64,000 nucleotides of DNA from Elusimicrobiota bacterium (GCA_016191335.1 JACPOW010000051.1:12162-76161); one strand, 5' to 3'. Positions 21,409-50,810 are shown, counted from the stretch's first letter. Notes: generated by a model not told the origin, from the sequence alone. Program-made: numbers and translations.

Positions 21409-21486
21409 TGGGGTGACCGAGGGGACTTGAACCCCCGACCTCAGCGTTCACAGCGCTGCGCTCTAACCAGCTGAGCTACGGCCACC
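21409..21486 (-). tRNA. tRNA-His (anticodon GTG)
   Basis: Hand-folded 78-nt cloverleaf: G-1, acceptor GTGGCCG/CGGTCAC, anticodon loop CTGTGAA, T-arm GGGGG-TTCAAGT-CCCCT, discriminator C and encoded CCA. TATAAT at 21503-21498 upstream. Confidence 0.93.
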
Positions 21487-21601: not shown

Positions 21602-22843
21602 ATGAAGAGAAACCTGACGAAGACTGGCTGGACCGTCCTCACCATCGCGCTGGCCGCTCTTCTGTTCACCCCTCCGGCGGGCGCGAAAACCACCAAGAAG
21701 GCGGCCAAGTCCAAGGCCAACCCCGAGGCCCAGCGCCTGATGTCGGCCGGCCTCGCGAACCTGGAAGCCGGAGAGACCTCCGCCGCGATCTCGACCTTCA
21801 ACAAGGCCGTGCGCAAGGAAGGCTCGGTGTCCACCTACTTCCTGCTGGGCTGGGCCCACTACCAGCGCGGCTTCAAGCTCGGCTCGACCGAGTCAGCGGA
21901 CCGCGACGACGCCCAGTCCGCGATCGACGCCTACGCGATGGCCCTGAGCCTCGATTCGTCGCTGAAGGAGCTGCCCGACGCCTCCCGCCTGTACTTCTCG
22001 ATGGCCCTGTGCTACGAGGCCGTGCAGTCCTACGACAAGGCGCTCGACGCGTACAAGATGGCGTTCCGCGCCGCGCCGAACAAGGCCCTGATCCCGATGA
22101 ACGCCGCCCGCCTGCGCCTGAAGATGGGCGACACCGCCAAGGCCGTCTCCAACATCGACCTGGCGATGGCCAAGGCGATGAAGAACGGCCAGGCCAAGAC
22201 GCTGCGCGACGCCGTCCGCCGCGACCCCGCCTTCGCCCCGCTGATCGCCAACGGCGCCTCCCGCAAGGCCCTCGGCATCGGCTCTTCGGAAGACGGCGAA
22301 GCCGTCGCCGACCTCGGCATCCGCGGCGAGGAGATGCGCGACGCCGTCCGCGACACCGCCCCGAAGCCCGTCGCCCCGGCCCAGGACGCCGAGGTCCTCG
22401 AGAAGATCGCCCAGGGCAACGTCGAGTTCAAGTTCCGCCGCTACCTGTCCGCGGTCTCCTCCTACAACGAGGCCCTGTCCCTCGACCAGGAGCGCCTGAC
22501 CTTGGGCGCGCCGCAGACCGCGCAGATCTACGAGAAGATCGGGACGGCCTGCAACAAGCTCGGTCAGTCGGAAGTGGCCATCCGCTCCCTCCAGAAGGCC
22601 CTTCAGCAGAACCCGATGAACCCGTCGGCGCACTACCAGATCGCCACGGCCTACGCGATGTCCGGCAAGACCGCCGTCGCGCTGCGCGCCCTGGACGAGT
22701 CCTTCAAGGCCTGCGCCGGCCCCAACGACCTGCGCCGCTTCGTGATGCAGGCCAAGACCGACACCGAGCTCGAGGCGGTGCGCGACCTCCCGGCCTTCCG
22801 CTCCACCGTCGCCAAGTACTCCGACCGCGTCGCCCTGCGCTAA
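21602..22843 (+). CDS. TPR-repeat protein, secreted
   Basis: Signal peptide (TVLTIALAALLFTPPAGA) followed by multiple 34-aa TPR-like units (A..Y..AL..P pattern). Confidence 0.8.
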   Translation: MKRNLTKTGWTVLTIALAALLFTPPAGAKTTKKAAKSKANPEAQRLMSAGLANLEAGETSAAISTFNKAVRKEGSVSTYFLLGWAHYQRGFKLGSTESADRDDAQSAIDAYAMALSLDSSLKELPDASRLYFSMALCYEAVQSYDKALDAYKMAFRAAPNKALIPMNAARLRLKMGDTAKAVSNIDLAMAKAMKNGQAKTLRDAVRRDPAFAPLIANGASRKALGIGSSEDGEAVADLGIRGEEMRDAVRDTAPKPVAPAQDAEVLEKIAQGNVEFKFRRYLSAVSSYNEALSLDQERLTLGAPQTAQIYEKIGTACNKLGQSEVAIRSLQKALQQNPMNPSAHYQIATAYAMSGKTAVALRALDESFKACAGPNDLRRFVMQAKTDTELEAVRDLPAFRSTVAKYSDRVALR

Positions 22844-22860: not shown

Positions 22861-23727
22861 ATGACCCTCGCTTGCCTTCTGTTGCTGGCGGTGACCCCGG
22901 CCCCGGCCGGAGAGCTGGACTACGCGCCCGCGTCCGCGATCGTCGAGAAGGCGCGCGGGGCGTGGTTCCGCAAGGTCGTCTCGCCCGAAGGCGCCGCCTT
23001 CGAGGGCCTCGAGGCCTGGGGCGTCCTGCCCAAGCCCTCCTTCGACCCCGCGCGCGAGCACAGCGCCACCCCCGGCGAGGACGCCTACAAGAGCGGCCCC
23101 CTCGACCGTCCCGACGTCTACCTCGGCCTCCACGCCGACGGCGCCGAGGTGGACGCGGGCCTGATCTGGGACCGCGTCTACGACCGCGACGGCCGCGACA
23201 CGGGGGAGTTCGCCTACCGCGTGTACTGGCGCACGAGCAAGGGCGGCTGGAGCAACCCCGCGCCCGGCGCTGCCGACGACCTCTACCTCCGCCCCGGCGA
23301 GCGCTTCGCCCTGACCTTGCGAGCCCTTCCCGACGGCTCCGCCCGGCTCTCGGTGCGCCGCGCCGGGGCCGACGCCGCCTCCGCCGGCTACCAGTTCCCG
23401 GTCCCCGGCCTGCTCGCCGCGAACGGCTCCCTCAAACCCCTTTCCTTTAAGAGAGTCCATTCCCTCGACCAGTTCCGCCTCGAGGGGGGGCGCCGCCGCG
23501 GCAACGAGGGCCGCCCCGCTTTGCCCACGCGCACCGCGCTCGAGGGCGGCCGCTGGGAAGGCGCGCACCTCCTCAGGTCCGACGGCTCCCGCGCCGCCAT
23601 GGCGGGGGGGCTGGCGACCGTCGCCCGGGGCGTCGACGCCGCGGGCCGCTACGGCGCGGTGTTCCCCGGAGCCGGCGTGGGCAAGGGCGGCGCGGAAGAG
23701 ATGCGAATCCTGCCTCCTCGCTCTTAA
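22861..23727 (+). CDS. secreted hypothetical protein
   Basis: 288 aa with signal peptide MTLACLLLLAVTPAPAGE and AAGGAGGG SD. No family recognised. Confidence 0.6.
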   Translation: MTLACLLLLAVTPAPAGELDYAPASAIVEKARGAWFRKVVSPEGAAFEGLEAWGVLPKPSFDPAREHSATPGEDAYKSGPLDRPDVYLGLHADGAEVDAGLIWDRVYDRDGRDTGEFAYRVYWRTSKGGWSNPAPGAADDLYLRPGERFALTLRALPDGSARLSVRRAGADAASAGYQFPVPGLLAANGSLKPLSFKRVHSLDQFRLEGGRRRGNEGRPALPTRTALEGGRWEGAHLLRSDGSRAAMAGGLATVARGVDAAGRYGAVFPGAGVGKGGAEEMRILPPRS

Positions 23728-23743
23728 GTTGCTATAATGACCC

Positions 23744-24451
23744 GTGGCTTATTCGAAGCGAGACGCGCCCAATTGCGATTGGTGCCCCTATAAGAAGAAC
23801 TGCTTTTACGAGCTCCTCGGCACGAAGGAGTCGAAGAAGGCCTGGCGCGAGATCCGTCTCGCGCACCCGCACAAGCGCGGCGAGGTGATCTTCCACGAAG
23901 GCTCGATGCCCCAGGGCGTCTACGTCGTCTGCACCGGCAAGGTGAAGATCTACAAGTCGAGCCGCACCGGCCAGCAGCTCACCACGCGCGTCGAGTCCCC
24001 CGGGGACCTGCTGGGCCACGTGACCTTGCTCGCCGACGAGGGCGCCTACACCAGCACCGGCGAGGCCCTCGAGCCCAGCATCGTCTCGATGATCGACAAG
24101 AACACCTTCTACAACTTCCTCTCCAAATACCCGCCCGCCGCGCACGCGCTGATGAAGGAGCTCGCCAAGGACGTCCGCCGCGGCGAGAACAAGGCGCGCG
24201 ACATCGCCTTCAAGCCCGCCCGCGGCCGCCTGGCCGACACCCTGATCCGCATGATGGTCGTCAAGAAGCCTTTCCCGGTCGTCGCCGGCATCAAGCGCCG
24301 CGACCTCGCCGAGATGGCGGGCCTCACCATCGAGACCACGGTGCGCCTGCTCAAGGACTTCGAGGAGCGCGACGTGCTGCGCAAGAAGGAGAAGGACCTC
24401 CTGATCCTCTCCGAGGAGCGCCTCCGCGCCCTGTCGGGCTCCGTGTCCTAA
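23744..24451 (+). CDS. Crp/Fnr family transcriptional regulator, FNR-like N-terminal Cys cluster
   Basis: cNMP-binding-like beta-roll and a C-terminal HTH (RRDLAEMAGLTIETTVRLLKDF). The N-terminus has C11-x2-C14-x5-C20. GTG start lies 5 nt after TATAAT (23733-23738). Confidence 0.88.
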   Translation: MAYSKRDAPNCDWCPYKKNCFYELLGTKESKKAWREIRLAHPHKRGEVIFHEGSMPQGVYVVCTGKVKIYKSSRTGQQLTTRVESPGDLLGHVTLLADEGAYTSTGEALEPSIVSMIDKNTFYNFLSKYPPAAHALMKELAKDVRRGENKARDIAFKPARGRLADTLIRMMVVKKPFPVVAGIKRRDLAEMAGLTIETTVRLLKDFEERDVLRKKEKDLLILSEERLRALSGSVS

Positions 24452-24510
24452 GGCTCACATCTCCTCTGGGCCCGCGGCCCACCCGGTCTAGGACCTTTGA
24501 CCTAGATCAA

Positions 24511-24524
24511 TTGATAAACATCAA
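24511..24524 (+). promoter_or_regulatory. perfect FNR-type box TTGAT-AAAC-ATCAA upstream of peptide gene A
   Basis: Exact match to TTGAT-N4-ATCAA. Its centre is 52.5 bp upstream of the first base of the -10-like hexamer TATACT (24570-24575), which is 6 nt from ATG 24582. Confidence 0.65.
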
Positions 24525-24581
24525 GCTTCGGGGTTGTCCAATCTCATCGGAGATTACAATCATGCGCGTTATACTGTATGC

Positions 24582-24824
24582 ATGATCAACCTCATCCTGA
24601 CGCTCTCGCTCTCGACCTTCAACCCCGCTCCGGCGACCCAGACGGCCCAGTTCCGGCCCTGCGTGTGGCCCAACGTCTGCAAGACCGCTCCCGCTCCGGT
24701 GAGCGTCGCCCAGTTCCGGCCCTGCGTGTGGCCCAACGTCTGCAAGACGCAGACCGCCCCGGTGATCGAAGTCGCCCAGTTCACCACCTGCGTGTACCCG
24801 CGCAAGTGCGGCAAGAAGGCCTGA
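24582..24824 (+). CDS. small Cys/Trp/Pro-repeat peptide A (80 aa, three C-V-[WY]-P-x-x-C modules)
   Basis: MINLILTLSLSTFNPAPATQT-AQFRPCVWPNVCKT-APAPVSV-AQFRPCVWPNVCKT-QTAPVIEV-AQFTTCVYPRKCGKKA. It has two paralogues downstream and its own terminator. Synonymous differences between paralogues preserve the module. Confidence 0.7.
   Translation: MINLILTLSLSTFNPAPATQTAQFRPCVWPNVCKTAPAPVSVAQFRPCVWPNVCKTQTAPVIEVAQFTTCVYPRKCGKKA
24645..24748 (+). repeat. exact 41-nt direct repeat (24645-24685 and 24708-24748), period 63 nt, inside peptide gene A
   Basis: gcccagttccggccctgcgtgtggcccaacgtctgcaagac occurs twice, encoding AQFRPCVWPNVCK. Confidence 0.95.
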
Positions 24825-24856
24825 GACTTTAAAGCCGACCTCGAACCGGCGCCGTC

Positions 24857-24891
24857 AGAAGACCCCGACCCCTCGGGGTCTTCTTCTTTTT
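24857..24891 (+). terminator. rho-independent terminator of peptide gene A
   Basis: 12-bp stem agaagaccccga/tcggggtcttct with loop CCCC, followed by a T-rich tail (tcttttt). Confidence 0.8.
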
Positions 24892-24938
24892 ATGACGCCT
24901 CTTGAACGCGGCGTGTCGGACCGGTCACGGTTACATTA

Positions 24939-24952
24939 ATGACGAGCATCAA
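24939..24952 (+). promoter_or_regulatory. FNR-like half-conserved box aTGAC-GAGC-ATCAA upstream of peptide gene B
   Basis: Right half is perfect and the left half matches 3/5. Same 52.5-bp centre-to-hexamer distance, here to TACACT (24998-25003), which is 6 nt from ATG 25010. Confidence 0.5.
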
Positions 24953-25009
24953 ACGCGGGCATTGACCGTCCTCCTAGGGGGTTTTCCGGGGGCGGGGTAC
25001 ACTGTCTCC

Positions 25010-25201
25010 ATGATCAACCTCATTTTGACGCTCTCGCTGTTCAACGCCCAGCCCGCGCCGAAGACGGCCCAGTTCCGTCCCTGCGTGTGGCCCAATACGT
25101 GCAAGACCGCGCCGGCCCCCGTGATCGCCCAGTTCACGACCTGCGTCTGGCCCAAGACCTGCGGAAAGAAGAAGGCCGCCCCCAGCCTCATCGCCCTGTA
25201 A
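25010..25201 (+). CDS. small Cys/Trp/Pro-repeat peptide B (63 aa, two modules)
   Basis: MINLILTLSLFNAQPAPKT-AQFRPCVWPNTCKT-APAPVI-AQFTTCVWPKTCGKKKAAPSLIAL. Paralogue of A. Confidence 0.7.
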   Translation: MINLILTLSLFNAQPAPKTAQFRPCVWPNTCKTAPAPVIAQFTTCVWPKTCGKKKAAPSLIAL

Positions 25202-25227
25202 GCCGACCTCGAACCGGCGCGACGCAC

Positions 25228-25263
25228 GGGAGCCTCCGACCCCTCGGAGGCTCCCTCTCTTTT
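25228..25263 (+). terminator. rho-independent terminator of peptide gene B
   Basis: 12-bp stem gggagcctccga/tcggaggctccc with loop CCCC, then tctctttt. Confidence 0.8.
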
Positions 25264-25279
25264 GATTGAGCGCGATCAA

Positions 25280-25293
25280 GTGACGCAGATCAA
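25280..25293 (+). promoter_or_regulatory. FNR-like box gTGAC-GCAG-ATCAA upstream of peptide gene C
   Basis: Same 52.5-bp centre-to-hexamer distance, here to TATCCT (25339-25344). A TTGAT-N8-ATCAA element lies just upstream (25262-25279). Confidence 0.45.
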
Positions 25294-25372
25294 GTTCCAA
25301 AATTGACACGGGTCCTCGGCGGTTCCGCGGGGAAGCGATATCCTGTCATCAACGATTTAGGAGGACACGAAC

Positions 25373-25645
25373 ATGATGACCTTGATTCTCGCGACGTTCC
25401 TGACGGCGACCCCGGCCCCCGTGACGACGGCTCAGTTCCGCCCGTGCGTGTGGCCCAACACCTGCACGGTCGCTCCCGCGACCTCGACCGCGCCCGCCCC
25501 CGTCGTGACCCCGGCGGTCGCCCAGTTCCAGCCCTGCGTGTGGCCCAAGACCTGCACGGTCGCTCCCGCGACCTCGAGCGTCCCGGCGCCCGTGATCGCG
25601 TCCGGCCCGGTGTCGACCTGCGTCTGGCCCAACAAGTGCGGCTGA
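25373..25645 (+). CDS. small Cys/Trp/Pro-repeat peptide C (90 aa, three modules)
   Basis: MMTLILATFLTATPAPVTT-AQFRPCVWPNTCTV-...-AQFQPCVWPKTCTV-...-VSTCVWPNKCG. AGGAGG SD (25359-25364) lies 8 nt upstream. Confidence 0.75.
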   Translation: MMTLILATFLTATPAPVTTAQFRPCVWPNTCTVAPATSTAPAPVVTPAVAQFQPCVWPKTCTVAPATSSVPAPVIASGPVSTCVWPNKCG

Positions 25646-25667
25646 GCTGAGCGCCCGAACGAAGAAG

Positions 25668-25697
25668 AAGCCCCGTCCTCTCGGACGGGGCTTTTCA
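25668..25697. terminator. hairpin terminator between convergent peptide gene C and upp
   Basis: 11-bp stem aagccccgtcc/ggacggggctt with loop tctc, a T-rich 3' flank on the + strand and an A/G-rich 5' flank. Confidence 0.7.
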
Positions 25698-25721
25698 TTT
25701 CCCGGTGCGCCGTTGGCGCGG

Positions 25722-48164: not shown

Positions 48165-50810
48165 ATGCGGGCCCTTCGCGTCTTCTTGGCGCTTCTTCTC
48201 GCGGCCGGACCAGCTCAAGCGCAGCCCGTGGTCGATCTCCTCACCCGCTATGCCGTTCCTGCCGATGAAATCGCCGCCTCCGCGCCTGAGGGCGAAGCGC
48301 CCCAAGGCTCCGGGAAGAAATTGGCTGAACTGGAGGCCGATCTCGCGATCGTGAGCGAAGGCCTCGAAGCGTTCGCCCATCCGGACGACGCCGCCAAGGC
48401 CCTCCTCGCCGCCAAGCCACGCCTTCCCGCCGGCACCGCCCCGTTCTTTCGTGATCGGGCCACGGCCCTCGATTCGCTGTATCGCACCTTGGCGGTCGTG
48501 GACTACACGTGGGCGCTTCGCTTTCCGAACCCTCCTTGCTCGCCGGCCGAGAAGCGAGGAGAACTGCTCCGCTCGGATGACGGGTTGTTCGTGGATCGAG
48601 TCTCGGGGCAAACCTCCGCGTGGATGACCGCCCTTCTCGGGCCGATCGCCAAAGGCAAGGATCTCGAGGCCGCCCTCGACCGTGCATCGGCCTCGGCGAC
48701 GCCGAGCCAAGCCGAGTACGCCCGCCTGCGCGCCCGGCAGAACCTGATCACCAAGGCCCTCGGGGCAAAGGACGCCGTAGGCGAAGCGAGGGCCCGGCTT
48801 TACTGCAAGCGCGCGGAGACCCGCGTGAGGCTGGCCGCCGCCAACCGGGCTTCAGAACAAGTGCTCGCGGCGCGAGCCTCGGAAGCGAAGGCATCCCGGC
48901 ACGGAGTGGTCATCGTCGCAGGGAAAACACCCGAGGGTCTGGAAGCGCGCGGGGCCGGCGTCGTCGTCGATACGAAGTCGGGTGTTCGCGTCCTCACCGA
49001 CCGCCGTCTAGTAGGCGGGGATGTCGTGGCGCTTGTCGATGGAAGGGCCGCTCTGGTGCCGTTGACCGTCGAGCGCGAGGATGTGCCTTCGGGACTCCTT
49101 CTTCTGCGGCCGGAGGGGGATGTCGGAGAAGCGTTGACTTTGGCCGAGGCGGCGCCCGGAAAGGACGATCTCGTGTTCGCTTTCGCGCATTCCGAGCGTC
49201 TGGGAGCGTGGACGCGAACGCAGGGGCTCGTGACGAGCGCTGATTCGAATCAATTTCAGACCGACGCGGTCGCCGATGCCTCCATGACCGGAGGCGCCGT
49301 TCTCGATGAAGAAGGCCGTTTGGTCGGGCTGCTCGTTCTTCGGCGGGACGAAGCCGGCGAATGGCCCGTGGCTATTCCATCCCCGGCGCTCAAATATTGG
49401 ATCGCGGGGGGAGGGGGTCCCGCCGCGGAGCCTGCGGTCCTTCTGGACGCGGGCACGACCAAGATCCTGACAGCCTCGCGCCCCCTGCTCGACAGCCTCT
49501 CCGTGGGCAAAGGCGCCATCACCGCCGCTCGCGCCGCGGATATCTATACTCCGACGCCATGGGGCACCGTGCGGGGCGTCTGCAAGGCCAACTGTGAGGA
49601 CTCGGCACCTTCGACCTCGTATTCCGGAGGCAGCGACGGGAGTCGCGCGCTCGGAGAGGCGTTGGGGAAGCTCGCGGCGGTCGGCCTCCAGGCGCTGATT
49701 TTCAAAGGCATTCCTGCGTTGTTCCGCGGGATCGGGTCGATGTTCAAATCCAAACCTCGCTCCTCCTCGCCCAAGGACGCGCCGGCTGCATCCGTCGAGA
49801 AGAAGCCCGAACCTCCCAAACCGAAGCCGGAGCTGCTCGTCACGCTTTCGCCCGCGAGCGTCCTTCCCGGGAAGGAAGTCGTTTTCATATTGACGGTCAA
49901 AGGTAAGCCGGCGGAGACCAAGATATCGGGCCTGCGCGTCGATTTCACCGTCACGAACGACATGGAAACGAGCACCGGCACGGCGGTCACGGATGAAACG
50001 GGGACCGCCATTCTGCGGATAACTCCGTCACCCTCCGCGCGCAGCTTCGTCGATCTTCAGCGGGAAAGCGACCGGCATCCGGTGCTGATCAACACCGGCC
50101 GTGAGACGAACACGGAACAGATCTGCAAGATCGTCCTGCCGGGGTCGCTTTTGATCGGCATGCTCACCGCCGCCGCAGTGCTGGCTCCGACGCCTGAGGG
50201 CCTGGTGATAGTCTACGCCGGCGGACCCGAGTGTCTCACCGCGGCCTCGGGGCTCATAGCGGGAGCGGGGGCCTACTGCACGGTCCAATTCGGAAAGGAG
50301 GCCCTAGCCCAATCCCGCCAGCCGGTAACGCCGAGCTATTCTCGGCCCGCGAAGGTTCCGTCGTCCGTCAAGAAGGCGGAAAACGCCATCGACGCAGCAC
50401 GGAGTCATGCAGAGGCTGCTGATGAGGATTTGGAAGCAGCGGACATTGAACACAGCAATCATCCGGACCCATCAGGGGCCGGGGCACAGTCATCACCCGG
50501 CGATCCAAACAAACCGCCAATCGACCCCGAAGACGAGGAAAAGCCCAAGACGACACGACATGGCAGCGAACGCATTGCAGATGGGAATCCGACGCGTGGG
50601 GGAACACTAAATCAATCGGAAATCGGGGCCGCGAAGTCAGGGAAACAAATGACGCAACCGGATGGGTCCAAGGTTTTTATCCACGAAGTTGAGCCTGGCA
50701 AATACAATGTAGTTGTGGAAGGAGAGCGTGGGCTGATTACGAGTTTTCGTCATTTACGCTTAAAATCAATTCTCAGATTGACCAAGAATTATGGGTGGAA
50801 GGAGTTATGA
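48165..50810 (+). CDS. secreted multidomain polymorphic-toxin-like protein (degenerate trypsin-like domain, Ig-like domain, DUF4258-like C-terminal toxin module)
   Basis: Signal peptide. Trypsin_2-like core with His->Arg (LTDRRLV) and Ser->Thr (SMTGG). Ig-like segment (VTLSPASVLPGKEVVFILTV...). C-terminal about 87 aa (from 50547) has a RHGSERI...RGG...KVFIHEV...YNVVVEGERGLITSF pattern. AT-richer 3' end. Confidence 0.6.
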   Translation: MRALRVFLALLLAAGPAQAQPVVDLLTRYAVPADEIAASAPEGEAPQGSGKKLAELEADLAIVSEGLEAFAHPDDAAKALLAAKPRLPAGTAPFFRDRATALDSLYRTLAVVDYTWALRFPNPPCSPAEKRGELLRSDDGLFVDRVSGQTSAWMTALLGPIAKGKDLEAALDRASASATPSQAEYARLRARQNLITKALGAKDAVGEARARLYCKRAETRVRLAAANRASEQVLAARASEAKASRHGVVIVAGKTPEGLEARGAGVVVDTKSGVRVLTDRRLVGGDVVALVDGRAALVPLTVEREDVPSGLLLLRPEGDVGEALTLAEAAPGKDDLVFAFAHSERLGAWTRTQGLVTSADSNQFQTDAVADASMTGGAVLDEEGRLVGLLVLRRDEAGEWPVAIPSPALKYWIAGGGGPAAEPAVLLDAGTTKILTASRPLLDSLSVGKGAITAARAADIYTPTPWGTVRGVCKANCEDSAPSTSYSGGSDGSRALGEALGKLAAVGLQALIFKGIPALFRGIGSMFKSKPRSSSPKDAPAASVEKKPEPPKPKPELLVTLSPASVLPGKEVVFILTVKGKPAETKISGLRVDFTVTNDMETSTGTAVTDETGTAILRITPSPSARSFVDLQRESDRHPVLINTGRETNTEQICKIVLPGSLLIGMLTAAAVLAPTPEGLVIVYAGGPECLTAASGLIAGAGAYCTVQFGKEALAQSRQPVTPSYSRPAKVPSSVKKAENAIDAARSHAEAADEDLEAADIEHSNHPDPSGAGAQSSPGDPNKPPIDPEDEEKPKTTRHGSERIADGNPTRGGTLNQSEIGAAKSGKQMTQPDGSKVFIHEVEPGKYNVVVEGERGLITSFRHLRLKSILRLTKNYGWKEL

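Follow-up and report, generated by a model that had tools for sequence, protein, structure and literature searches.

The 64,000-nucleotide (nt) stretch of DNA from an Elusimicrobiota bacterium analysed here (GCA_016191335.1, JACPOW010000051.1:12162-76161; referred to below as the window) carries at positions 24452-25700 three small genes, pepA, pepB and pepC, whose products belong to a new peptide family. The family is present in no curated collection and in no searchable literature, and it is restricted to Elusimicrobiota wherever the organism is named. Judged from their sequences, the three are real, translated genes under selection, and a regulator of the FNR type encoded directly upstream looks dedicated to them and to their homologues. 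The explanation favoured here, with a confidence somewhat short of even, is that the products would be exported peptides bearing Cys-closed loops on a flexible Pro-rich string, that they would constitute the regulon of the adjacent regulator, and that no dedicated maturase would act on them.

The three open reading frames (ORFs) lie head-to-tail on the + strand and encode 80, 63 and 90 amino acids (aa). A first-pass annotation had described them as an unrecognised family, each gene having its own control region and hairpin terminator, with eight modules listed among the products. All eight modules are found in the sequence, promoter regions and hairpin/T-run sites could be located for each gene, and the synonymous differences between paralogues cited there (Arg cgg/cgt/cgc, Pro ccc/ccg, Asn aac/aat) are visible. 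The N-termini of the three products are short, hydrophobic and free of Lys and Arg, with a hydrophobic region about 10 residues long that leads into a PAP(A) stretch. They are followed by two or three copies of the module A-Q-F-x-[PT]-C-V-[WY]-P-[NKR]-x-C, with Pro/Ala/Thr/Val linkers between them; the final module of pepA, CVYPRKCGKKA, is cationic.

A database search with pepA retrieved 161 homologues, with E-values down to 3e-46, all unnamed or "hypothetical" and, where the source was named, all from metagenome-assembled genomes of Elusimicrobia/Elusimicrobiota. The profile search proposed in the first-pass annotation, carried out exhaustively among 1.84 billion representatives, recovered at least 225 clusters (50% identity) at E <= 1e-3, with the Cys, Trp and Pro positions kept in the alignments; the best 150 of the 225 clusters all have lengths of 50-155 aa. 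Scans of genome and metagenome contigs yielded 58 and 62 loci, respectively, ranging in G+C content from 48 to 72%, and the organisms named in them are all Elusimicrobiota except for an unclassified "bacterium" and an Endomicrobium label that is doubtful. Scans of the three peptides against Pfam and NCBIfam gave no family at E <= 1, those of the region and the whole window against Rfam (Rfam 15) gave tRNA only, and a PDB sequence search with the family profile returned only a chance match (E 1.5). A description of the family was likewise not found in the searchable literature with motif strings or with themes combining Elusimicrobia, RiPPs (peptides synthesised by ribosomes and then modified post-translationally) and FNR-linked small proteins, and the family thus stands as unrecognised as was first stated.

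The claim that the genes are translated and under selection is borne out by codon-level comparison. Among 16 orthologues the whole-gene ratio of nonsynonymous to synonymous polymorphism (pN/pS) is 0.52 in the annotated frame and 0.78-1.47 in the five other frames, which served as controls; by this measure purifying selection is confined to the annotated frame. The G+C content at third codon positions in that frame is 0.90 across the family. At the unconstrained Val position, Val stands in 183 of 189 modules and is written with four different codons. That the ORFs are untranslated and their conserved repeats act as RNA or DNA elements has next to no probability. The ORFs are indeed short, with little experimental precedent, two of the three genes have no Shine-Dalgarno sequence, and the DNA repeats of pepA are identical over about 40 nt. 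Against this stand the selection seen in the proposed frame only, the fixed residues with varied synonymous codons, conservation at the protein level across genomes of 48-72% G+C, the lack of any Rfam match, and other members endowed with signal peptides and Shine-Dalgarno sequences of the canonical type. Overlapping ORFs in other frames or on the opposite strand (e.g., 24569-24814, - strand) were rejected as real genes, being without the selection signature, and are read as by-products of the 69% G+C content. Attenuator-type leader peptides were also ruled out, as every ORF is closed by a terminator of its own and is followed by no structural gene. One family gene on a 3.1-Mb contig (L004 10001-10261, protein P0118) is frameshifted past its second module and is either a pseudogene or an assembly error.

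Across the family a peptide contains 2-6 modules, with one phage copy having a single module. Invariant in the alignments are the two Cys, the Pro (or Thr) before the first Cys, the Trp and the next Pro; the position after this Pro is occupied by Asn, less often by His, Lys or Arg, and Asp, Ser or Gly are not seen there. Most modules contain W/Y/F-P-N/K/R/H, and in a minority the aromatic position is taken by Leu, Met, Ala, Thr or Asn. A C-x4-C variant exists (PC[VI]WPKC), as do C-x5-C loops with unrelated interiors (PCGAGHYC, PCPDGRVC, DCVKTRTC) and a second module type, D-[YF]-E-I-C-x-[WY]-P-[RK]-K-C. Because of these three kinds of departure from the consensus, the comparison favours the Cys pair and its spacing as the deepest constant of the module and its core feature. 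AlphaFold2, run on a 52-sequence alignment, predicted only an N-terminal helix (residues 3-12) and no globular fold, with a mean predicted local distance difference test score (pLDDT) of 49.5; such a model is compatible with small loops strung flexibly together.

Similarity among modules is greater inside a single peptide than between orthologues. In a near-identical strain pepA has two modules and 59 aa (L008 2968-3147), in comparison with three modules and 80 aa in the window, which is consistent with recombination between the identical repeats of about 40 nt inside pepA. From the likeness within peptides and the two- and three-module strains it follows that modules are gained, lost and homogenised. 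Many members with an MIEL leader (e.g., L036, L045, L059, P0127 and P0184) end in an acidic-then-hydrophobic tail (...EEKI, ...EERI, ...ETELI or ...ESRLI), which might serve as a motif for recognition, e.g., by the linked tetratricopeptide repeat (TPR) protein described below; pepA, pepB and pepC are without it.

The module is also the starting point of an alternative, considered unlikely, in which the products serve as multi-core RiPP precursors and the maturase gene lies in another part of the genome, the modules being cross-linked and perhaps then cut apart. The cross-link could be a three-residue cyclophane on W-P-[N/K/R/H], as in WprA/WprB, or a thioether from Asn to Cys or another one involving Cys. 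The core-like modules are repeated, highly conserved and flanked by a constant AQF-x-P and a conserved N-terminal leader, and the aromatic-Pro-[N/K/R/H] triplet has the form of the omega1-X2-X3 motif, a likeness of form that does not in itself imply the cross-link. The extreme conservation of the module and the restriction to Asn, His, Lys or Arg after Pro are, moreover, more readily accounted for if an enzyme or partner recognises the module than by turn propensity alone. A precedent for cross-linked repeated WPR motifs exists in WprB, which joins Trp-C5 to Arg-Cgamma at three of them (PMC11851443, PMC12957482), and the radical S-adenosylmethionine (radical-SAM) enzymes NxxcB and QmpB make Asn-Cys thioethers. 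The triceptide-type WprA/WprB/WprC system resembles the pep genes in its short precursors with about three aromatic-Pro-basic/amide repeats, WPR in the one and WPN, WPK, WPR and YPR in the other, with linkers of roughly similar length (PMC11851443, PMC12957482). In contrast to it, the pep motif is always flanked by a Cys pair, some pep members have Sec signal peptides, the two families show no detectable sequence homology, and the radical-SAM enzyme and chaperone that adjoin the Wpr precursors are near the pep genes in none of the loci examined. The non-aromatic residues found in some modules weaken the cyclophane idea, and natural-product cores usually vary, whereas these modules are conserved across a phylum.

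A short leader of the form M-[ILMF]-[NETQSD]-[LIF]-[IL]-[LM] is present in 276 of 321 unique family sequences, 25 of the 276 being called with an upstream extension. About 13 members have in its place a canonical Sec signal peptide containing Lys or Arg and often ending in AxA/QF (a slash marks the cleavage site). Examples are MNKITLALALAFLAAPASA/QFQTC, MKRIIIAVTLSILSTPSFA/QIKPC and MKIILAILGLALVAGFFVRPAGA/QFRPC, in which the AxA site stands exactly before the QF of the first module. The common leader is read as a probable export signal because family members replace it with a textbook Sec signal peptide cleavable at A/QF. The same replacement speaks against RiPP precursors, since a generic Sec signal in these members means that leader-dependent recognition is not universal. 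In 24 of 27 orthologues the TPR protein begins with a Sec-like N-terminus, and a periplasmic location is predicted for it; the orthologues of a 288-aa protein encoded next to it have uncharged N-termini ending in AxA, like the peptides. A phage contig identified by genes for the small and large terminase subunits and the portal protein encodes MKILTLILTVTILAILLFGIPARA/QFQPCVWPNICAQ, a signal peptide with a single 13-residue module and nothing else. From these sequences an extracytoplasmic site of action can be inferred for the peptides, with one module sufficing as a functional unit. A transmembrane anchor or a lipoprotein signal at the N-terminus was ruled out, the hydrophobic stretch being only about 10 residues long and a lipobox being absent.

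The coincidence of the signal-peptidase site with A/QF in members with canonical signals, and the recurrence of the same AQF before every internal module, allow for secreted signalling precursors. Cleavage at A/QF would release disulfide-cyclised peptides of 13-19 residues, maybe with an N-terminal pyroglutamate, and the periplasmic TPR protein would be the sensor. Yeast alpha-factor precursors and the AimP peptides of phage arbitrium systems have an analogous layout. The phage version, a signal peptide plus one 13-residue module, and the linkage to a predicted periplasmic protein of a peptide-binding fold agree with such a role. It is nevertheless quite improbable: pheromones normally diversify by lineage, but this module hardly varies between genomes ranging from 48 to 72% G+C, the internal junctions often have Glu or Gln at -3, which is poor for signal peptidase I, and neither a processing protease nor a signal-transduction partner of the TPR protein was identified.

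The phage copy (L131 3262-3375, from IMG/VR UViG 3300009285_003361; also L128 and L129) lies in a moron-like position between a transposase gene and the small terminase gene and is preceded by TTGAC-N4-GTCAA boxes. A two-module member with a canonical signal peptide (L127 1722-1901) is located beside a phage-type endonuclease VII gene and acidic low-complexity ORFs, with a TATACT element 36 nt after a near-consensus box, TTGTCcgtcATCAA. Moron-like positions in phage contigs, together with small, exported, Cys-looped and Trp-containing products and the cationic last module of pepA, might suggest antimicrobial, phage-exclusion or envelope-acting peptides, whose disulfide loops would target competitors or the envelope of the producing cell itself, e.g., by blocking a receptor. 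Such a role is very improbable, as no immunity or dedicated export genes are present, and phylum-wide conservation under a redox-type sensor is at odds with the rapid diversification typical of bacteriocins.

The regulator encoded upstream of pepA matches the Pfam families cNMP_binding and HTH_Crp_2, has Fnr as its best NCBIfam match (E 2.4e-17, under the family cut-off), and aligns along its full length with the Aliivibrio FNR structure 5cvr; a PDB search with its N-terminus alone did not reach FNR entries. When aligned with the authentic product of E. coli fnr, the regulator has C11, C14 and C20 at the positions of the [4Fe-4S] ligands C20, C23 and C29, and its recognition helix keeps the E and R of the E--SR motif of FNR. 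In 32 orthologues (49-94% identity) no variation is seen in these three Cys, in C63 or in the helix GLTIETTVRLLKDFE. At 32 of 59 genome loci, some of them in genomes of 48-50% G+C, the regulator gene stands directly upstream of peptide genes. It had been overlooked, together with the operator arrays, in the first-pass reading of the neighbourhood, which was right in that no maturase is adjacent; the signs of export, the confinement to Elusimicrobiota and the copies on phages had likewise escaped it.

A perfect FNR box (TTGATaaacATCAA) stands at 24511-24524, and near-perfect ones precede pepA and pepC. Three of the four FNR-like boxes with at most one mismatch in the 64-kb window fall inside the 1.2-kb peptide region, against 0.2 expected; the fourth, CTGATTCGAATCAA (49240-49253, one mismatch), falls within an 881-aa ORF, probably by chance. 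In 856 kb of genome loci all 61 TTGAY-N4-RTCAA palindromes are located at most 260 nt upstream of a family gene, a zone that makes up 2.4% of the sequence. Of the 52 palindromes in a second, independent set of metagenome loci (379 kb), 47 stand before detected peptide genes, a further four are 77-145 nt upstream of tblastn matches (51 of 52 in all), and the remaining one is 100 nt from a contig end, just past a peptide gene. When pooled, 112 of 113 palindromes in 1.2 Mb of related DNA stand directly upstream of a family peptide gene. Peptide genes of secondary loci, far from any regulator gene, are preceded by an identical type of array. It is because the palindromes are exclusive to the peptide genes, those of secondary loci included, that the regulator looks dedicated to the family.

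Compared with FNR (E. coli; A. fischeri 5cvr/5e44), the system is alike in the Crp/Fnr fold, the three aligned cluster Cys, the E and R of the helix, operators matching the FNR consensus TTGAT-N4-ATCAA, and a promoter-proximal site at a predicted -41.5. Unlike FNR, the regulator is only 27% identical to the E. coli protein, with the score below the Fnr cut-off noted above, its sites are abutting arrays of 2-4 boxes, and in all the DNA examined these sites occur only before small peptide genes, which indicates a dedicated rather than a global regulator.

The promoter layout is fixed among orthologues, and the paralogues are alike: 2-4 abutting 14-bp boxes are followed by a degenerate TTGAC-N4-CTCAT box and, 22 nt past its end, by a -10-like TAnAnT element. 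The transcription start was predicted 7 nt after this element, and the box centres given in Table 1 are counted from there; -41.5 is the classical class II position of FNR and CRP. The -10-like element ends 6 nt before the ATG in 17 of the 39 genes with a callable promoter, pepA included, none of which needs a Shine-Dalgarno sequence, and five more are arranged alike (TATACTGT), their hexamer having been called 2 nt too late; about half of the callable-promoter genes are predicted to give leaderless mRNAs. Most other genes, among them pepC, have a leader of 20-56 nt with GGAGG after the same element. An own terminator (a hairpin and T-run at most 100 nt past the stop codon) is found in 66 of 74 genes, and region 24452-25700 contains nine terminator-like sites, with 1.0 expected from shuffled sequences; each gene is predicted to be its own monocistronic transcription unit. 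The 3' untranslated regions (UTRs) of the A- and B-type genes (24828-24893 and 25202-25262 in the window, and at orthologous loci) have the conserved stretch GCCGACCTCGAACCGGCG in common, and the terminator hairpins of these genes have a conserved centre, CCGACCCCTCGG, across many orthologues, a conservation exceeding what a terminator alone needs.

Table 1. Features of the peptide locus and of the genes preceding it (positions in the window; box centres relative to the predicted transcription start; a slash marks a predicted signal-peptide cleavage site).
Feature	Position	Strand	Description
TPR-repeat protein	21602-22843	+	413 aa; Pfam TPR families; canonical Sec signal peptide MKRNLTKTGWTVLTIALAALLFTPPAGA/K
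288-aa protein	22861-23727	+	no family match; short uncharged signal-like N-terminus MTLACLLLLAVTPAPA/GE
Crp/Fnr-family regulator, FNR type	23744-24451	+	235 aa; N-terminal C-x2-C-x5-C; invariant C63; recognition helix GLTIETTVRLL
pepA operator array	24497-24547	+	TTGACCTAGATCAA (24497-24510, -78.5), TTGATAAACATCAA (24511-24524, -64.5), degenerate TTGTCCAATCTCAT (24534-24547, -41.5)
pepA -10-like hexamer	24570-24575	+	TATACT; ends 6 nt before the ATG, no Shine-Dalgarno sequence; predicted leaderless mRNA from 24582
pepA	24582-24824	+	80 aa; leader MINLILTLSLSTFNPAPATQT and three modules (2 x AQFRPCVWPNVCK, 1 x AQFTTCVYPRKCGKKA); coordinates include the stop codon
pepA intrinsic terminator	24857-24884	+	G+C-rich hairpin, then T-run; preceded by the conserved 3' UTR stretch GCCGACCTCGAACCGGCG
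pepB control region	24939-25003	+	ATGACGAGCATCAA (24939-24952, -64.5), TTGACCGTCCTCCT (24962-24975, -41.5), -10 TACACT (24998-25003), which ends 6 nt before the ATG, as in pepA
pepB	25010-25201	+	63 aa; leader MINLILTLSLSTFNPAPATQT (as in pepA), two modules, basic/hydrophobic tail GKKKAAPSLIAL
pepB intrinsic terminator	25228-25255	+	G+C-rich hairpin, then T-run
pepC control region (with boxes)	25266-25364	+	TTGAGCGCGATCAA (25266-25279, -78.5), GTGACGCAGATCAA (25280-25293, -64.5), TTGACACGGGTCCT (25303-25316, -41.5)
pepC -10 to Shine-Dalgarno sequence	25339-25364	+	TATCCT (25339-25344); 22-nt leader with Shine-Dalgarno AGGAGG (25359-25364)
pepC	25373-25645	+	90 aa; leader MMTLILATFLTATPAPVTT, three modules, longer Pro/Ala/Thr linkers; C-terminus ...CVWPNKCG
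Hairpin between convergent pepC (+) and upp (-)	25668-25693	both	G+C-rich hairpin and T-run after pepC; terminator-like on either strand

The primary locus, with the gene order TPR protein, optional 288-aa protein, regulator, one to three peptide genes, optional metallophosphoesterase and convergent upp-deoA-PNP, recurs in 32 of the 59 genome loci, low-G+C genomes included. The TPR gene heads the conserved block and is found upstream of the regulator in 28 of the 59 loci; the 288-aa gene, whose product has no Pfam or NCBIfam match, stands between the two in nine. About 22 secondary loci fall into at least seven recurrent contexts among housekeeping-type genes, and the same contexts repeat in the metagenome loci; the neighbours, judged from sequence, look like radA, ddl, ftsH, argS, hemL and genes for an OPT transporter, a cold-shock protein and a Nudix protein. 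A functional link to the upp-deoA-PNP nucleoside genes was ruled out, these genes being convergent and absent at secondary loci.

As had been stated earlier for the window, no maturase, protease or exporter gene is adjacent. In the window itself no maturase is encoded within about 10 kb on either side of the peptide genes, and the genes that are found there, for an RND-type (resistance-nodulation-division) pump with its membrane-fusion protein, an extracytoplasmic function (ECF) sigma factor, a TetR regulator and an M28 peptidase, do not stay linked to the peptide genes elsewhere. The survey was extended to the 59 genome loci, about 30 longer metagenome loci and the phage contig, some neighbour clusters being judged by sequence only. 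In about 90 loci with readable flanks, covered over about 10 kb and representing more than eight unrelated contexts, it revealed no radical-SAM, MNIO, YcaO or lanthipeptide synthetase gene, no RiPP recognition element (RRE), no C39-peptidase ATP-binding cassette (ABC) exporter and no dedicated protease, and the phage copies are likewise without a maturase. In the loci surveyed the pep genes lack the co-localisation by which the known RiPP classes are defined, which counts against reading them as RiPP precursors. Prochlorosin precursors are, on the other hand, scattered in the genome relative to their maturase.

The favoured explanation, that of exported Cys-loop peptides under the adjacent regulator, would operate as follows. 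The regulator would sense O2, NO or the redox state, probably through an N-terminal Fe-S-type Cys cluster, by analogy with FNR, and would bind the abutting TTGAY-N4-RTCAA arrays with the promoter-proximal box near -41.5. Each gene would then, through activation under anoxia or through de-repression, give a short monocistronic RNA ending at its own intrinsic terminator, predicted to be leaderless for pepA and pepB and to have a Shine-Dalgarno leader for pepC. With the short hydrophobic N-terminus serving as the export signal, the body of the peptide would reach the periplasm or the cell exterior, where it would form a flexible Pro/Ala-rich string of 2-6 seven-residue C-V-W-P-N-x-C loops. Each loop would be closed by its two Cys, through a disulfide bond or a shared soft metal ion, so that no dedicated maturase would be needed. 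The least certain step is the role itself: the peptides may be an extracytoplasmic thiol/disulfide buffer, a buffer of soft metals such as Cu(I), or ligand-binding peptides, deployed when the sensor reports anoxia or redox stress, and the conserved periplasmic TPR protein may handle or bind them. A more specific picture, and a rather doubtful one, is that of an Fe-S sensor with Sec-exported tandem peptides as its only targets, whose 13-19-residue modules may be released at A/QF to act as a cyclic metal or redox buffer or as a signal handled by the TPR protein, single modules having been captured by phages.

Several observations weigh against the favoured explanation. The conservation of the P-C-V-W-P-N module goes far beyond what is usual for simple disulfide loops, and the post-Pro position is restricted to Asn, His, Lys and Arg, with none of the usual turn-formers Asp, Ser and Gly; both hint at recognition by an enzyme or a specific partner. 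Among the 251 leaders at a called N-terminus, 246 have no Lys or Arg in the first 12 residues, unlike a classical Sec n-region, and the common leader (MI[NE]LIL...) is over-conserved for a generic signal peptide and may serve some other recognition. The maturase survey covered the flanks of the loci, and a maturase encoded farther away is conceivable. At the position of the fourth FNR cluster ligand, C122, the regulator has Ser, a further difference from FNR; the invariant C63, a different Cys, may stand in for it. Finally, the -41.5 geometry is relative to predicted starts, and a scan of the region with the generic sigma-70 consensus found no promoters, the -10-like element and the boxes having emerged from the orthologue comparison only.

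Two other groups of peptides invite comparison. Bufferins are MNIO-modified, Sec-exported Cys peptides proposed to act in the periplasm on soft metals or in stress. They share with the pep products the small size, the Cys residues, the export signal and the proposed soft-metal or stress role in the periplasm. The pep genes differ from them in the motif and in the Crp/Fnr-type regulator, and no adjacent MNIO (DUF692) enzyme and partner was found among their annotated neighbours. Contryphans and the amphibian "Rana box" peptides, eukaryotic toxins and defence peptides, respectively, contain disulfide-closed C-x5-C heptapeptide loops. Their seven-residue Cys-to-Cys ring with Trp and Pro is like that of the pep modules, and C-V-Y-P-R-K-C of pepA has the C-x4-K-C form; in contrast to the pep products they are unrelated in sequence and have single loops instead of tandem arrays; the resemblance is one of form only.

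Some further features of the window and of a related contig deserve mention. The only tRNA gene in the window, for tRNA-His (21409-21485, - strand), is located just upstream of the TPR gene. On the P0016 contig the TPR-regulator-peptide block has, a few kb upstream of it, a nosZ-nosD-nosF-nosY-nosL cluster for nitrous-oxide reductase; only one genome shows this arrangement, which may be a coincidence. The segment 50000-52300 of the window has a G+C content of 0.54, compared with about 0.69 elsewhere, and spans the C-terminal 120 aa or so of an 881-aa secreted protein (48165-50810, Trypsin_2 only) and four or five small ORFs without Pfam matches; it looks like the tip of a polymorphic toxin accompanied by an immunity-like cassette, or like some other acquired island.

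The Elusimicrobiota are almost entirely uncultured, and nearly all that is known of them comes from the annotation of larger genes. The peptide family is invisible to current annotation, every member being either "hypothetical" or uncalled. The predicted sensor, its operators and the putatively exported peptides make up a small, apparently self-contained unit that is conserved across the lineages sampled, and they offer an unusually clean case of a Crp/Fnr regulator with recognisable sites at small-peptide genes only. The minimal module of 13 residues is amenable to synthesis and direct testing. If the peptides are modified, they would represent a new RiPP class with scattered precursors; if they are unmodified, they would constitute periplasmic Cys-loop peptides of a new type, linked to anoxia or redox stress.

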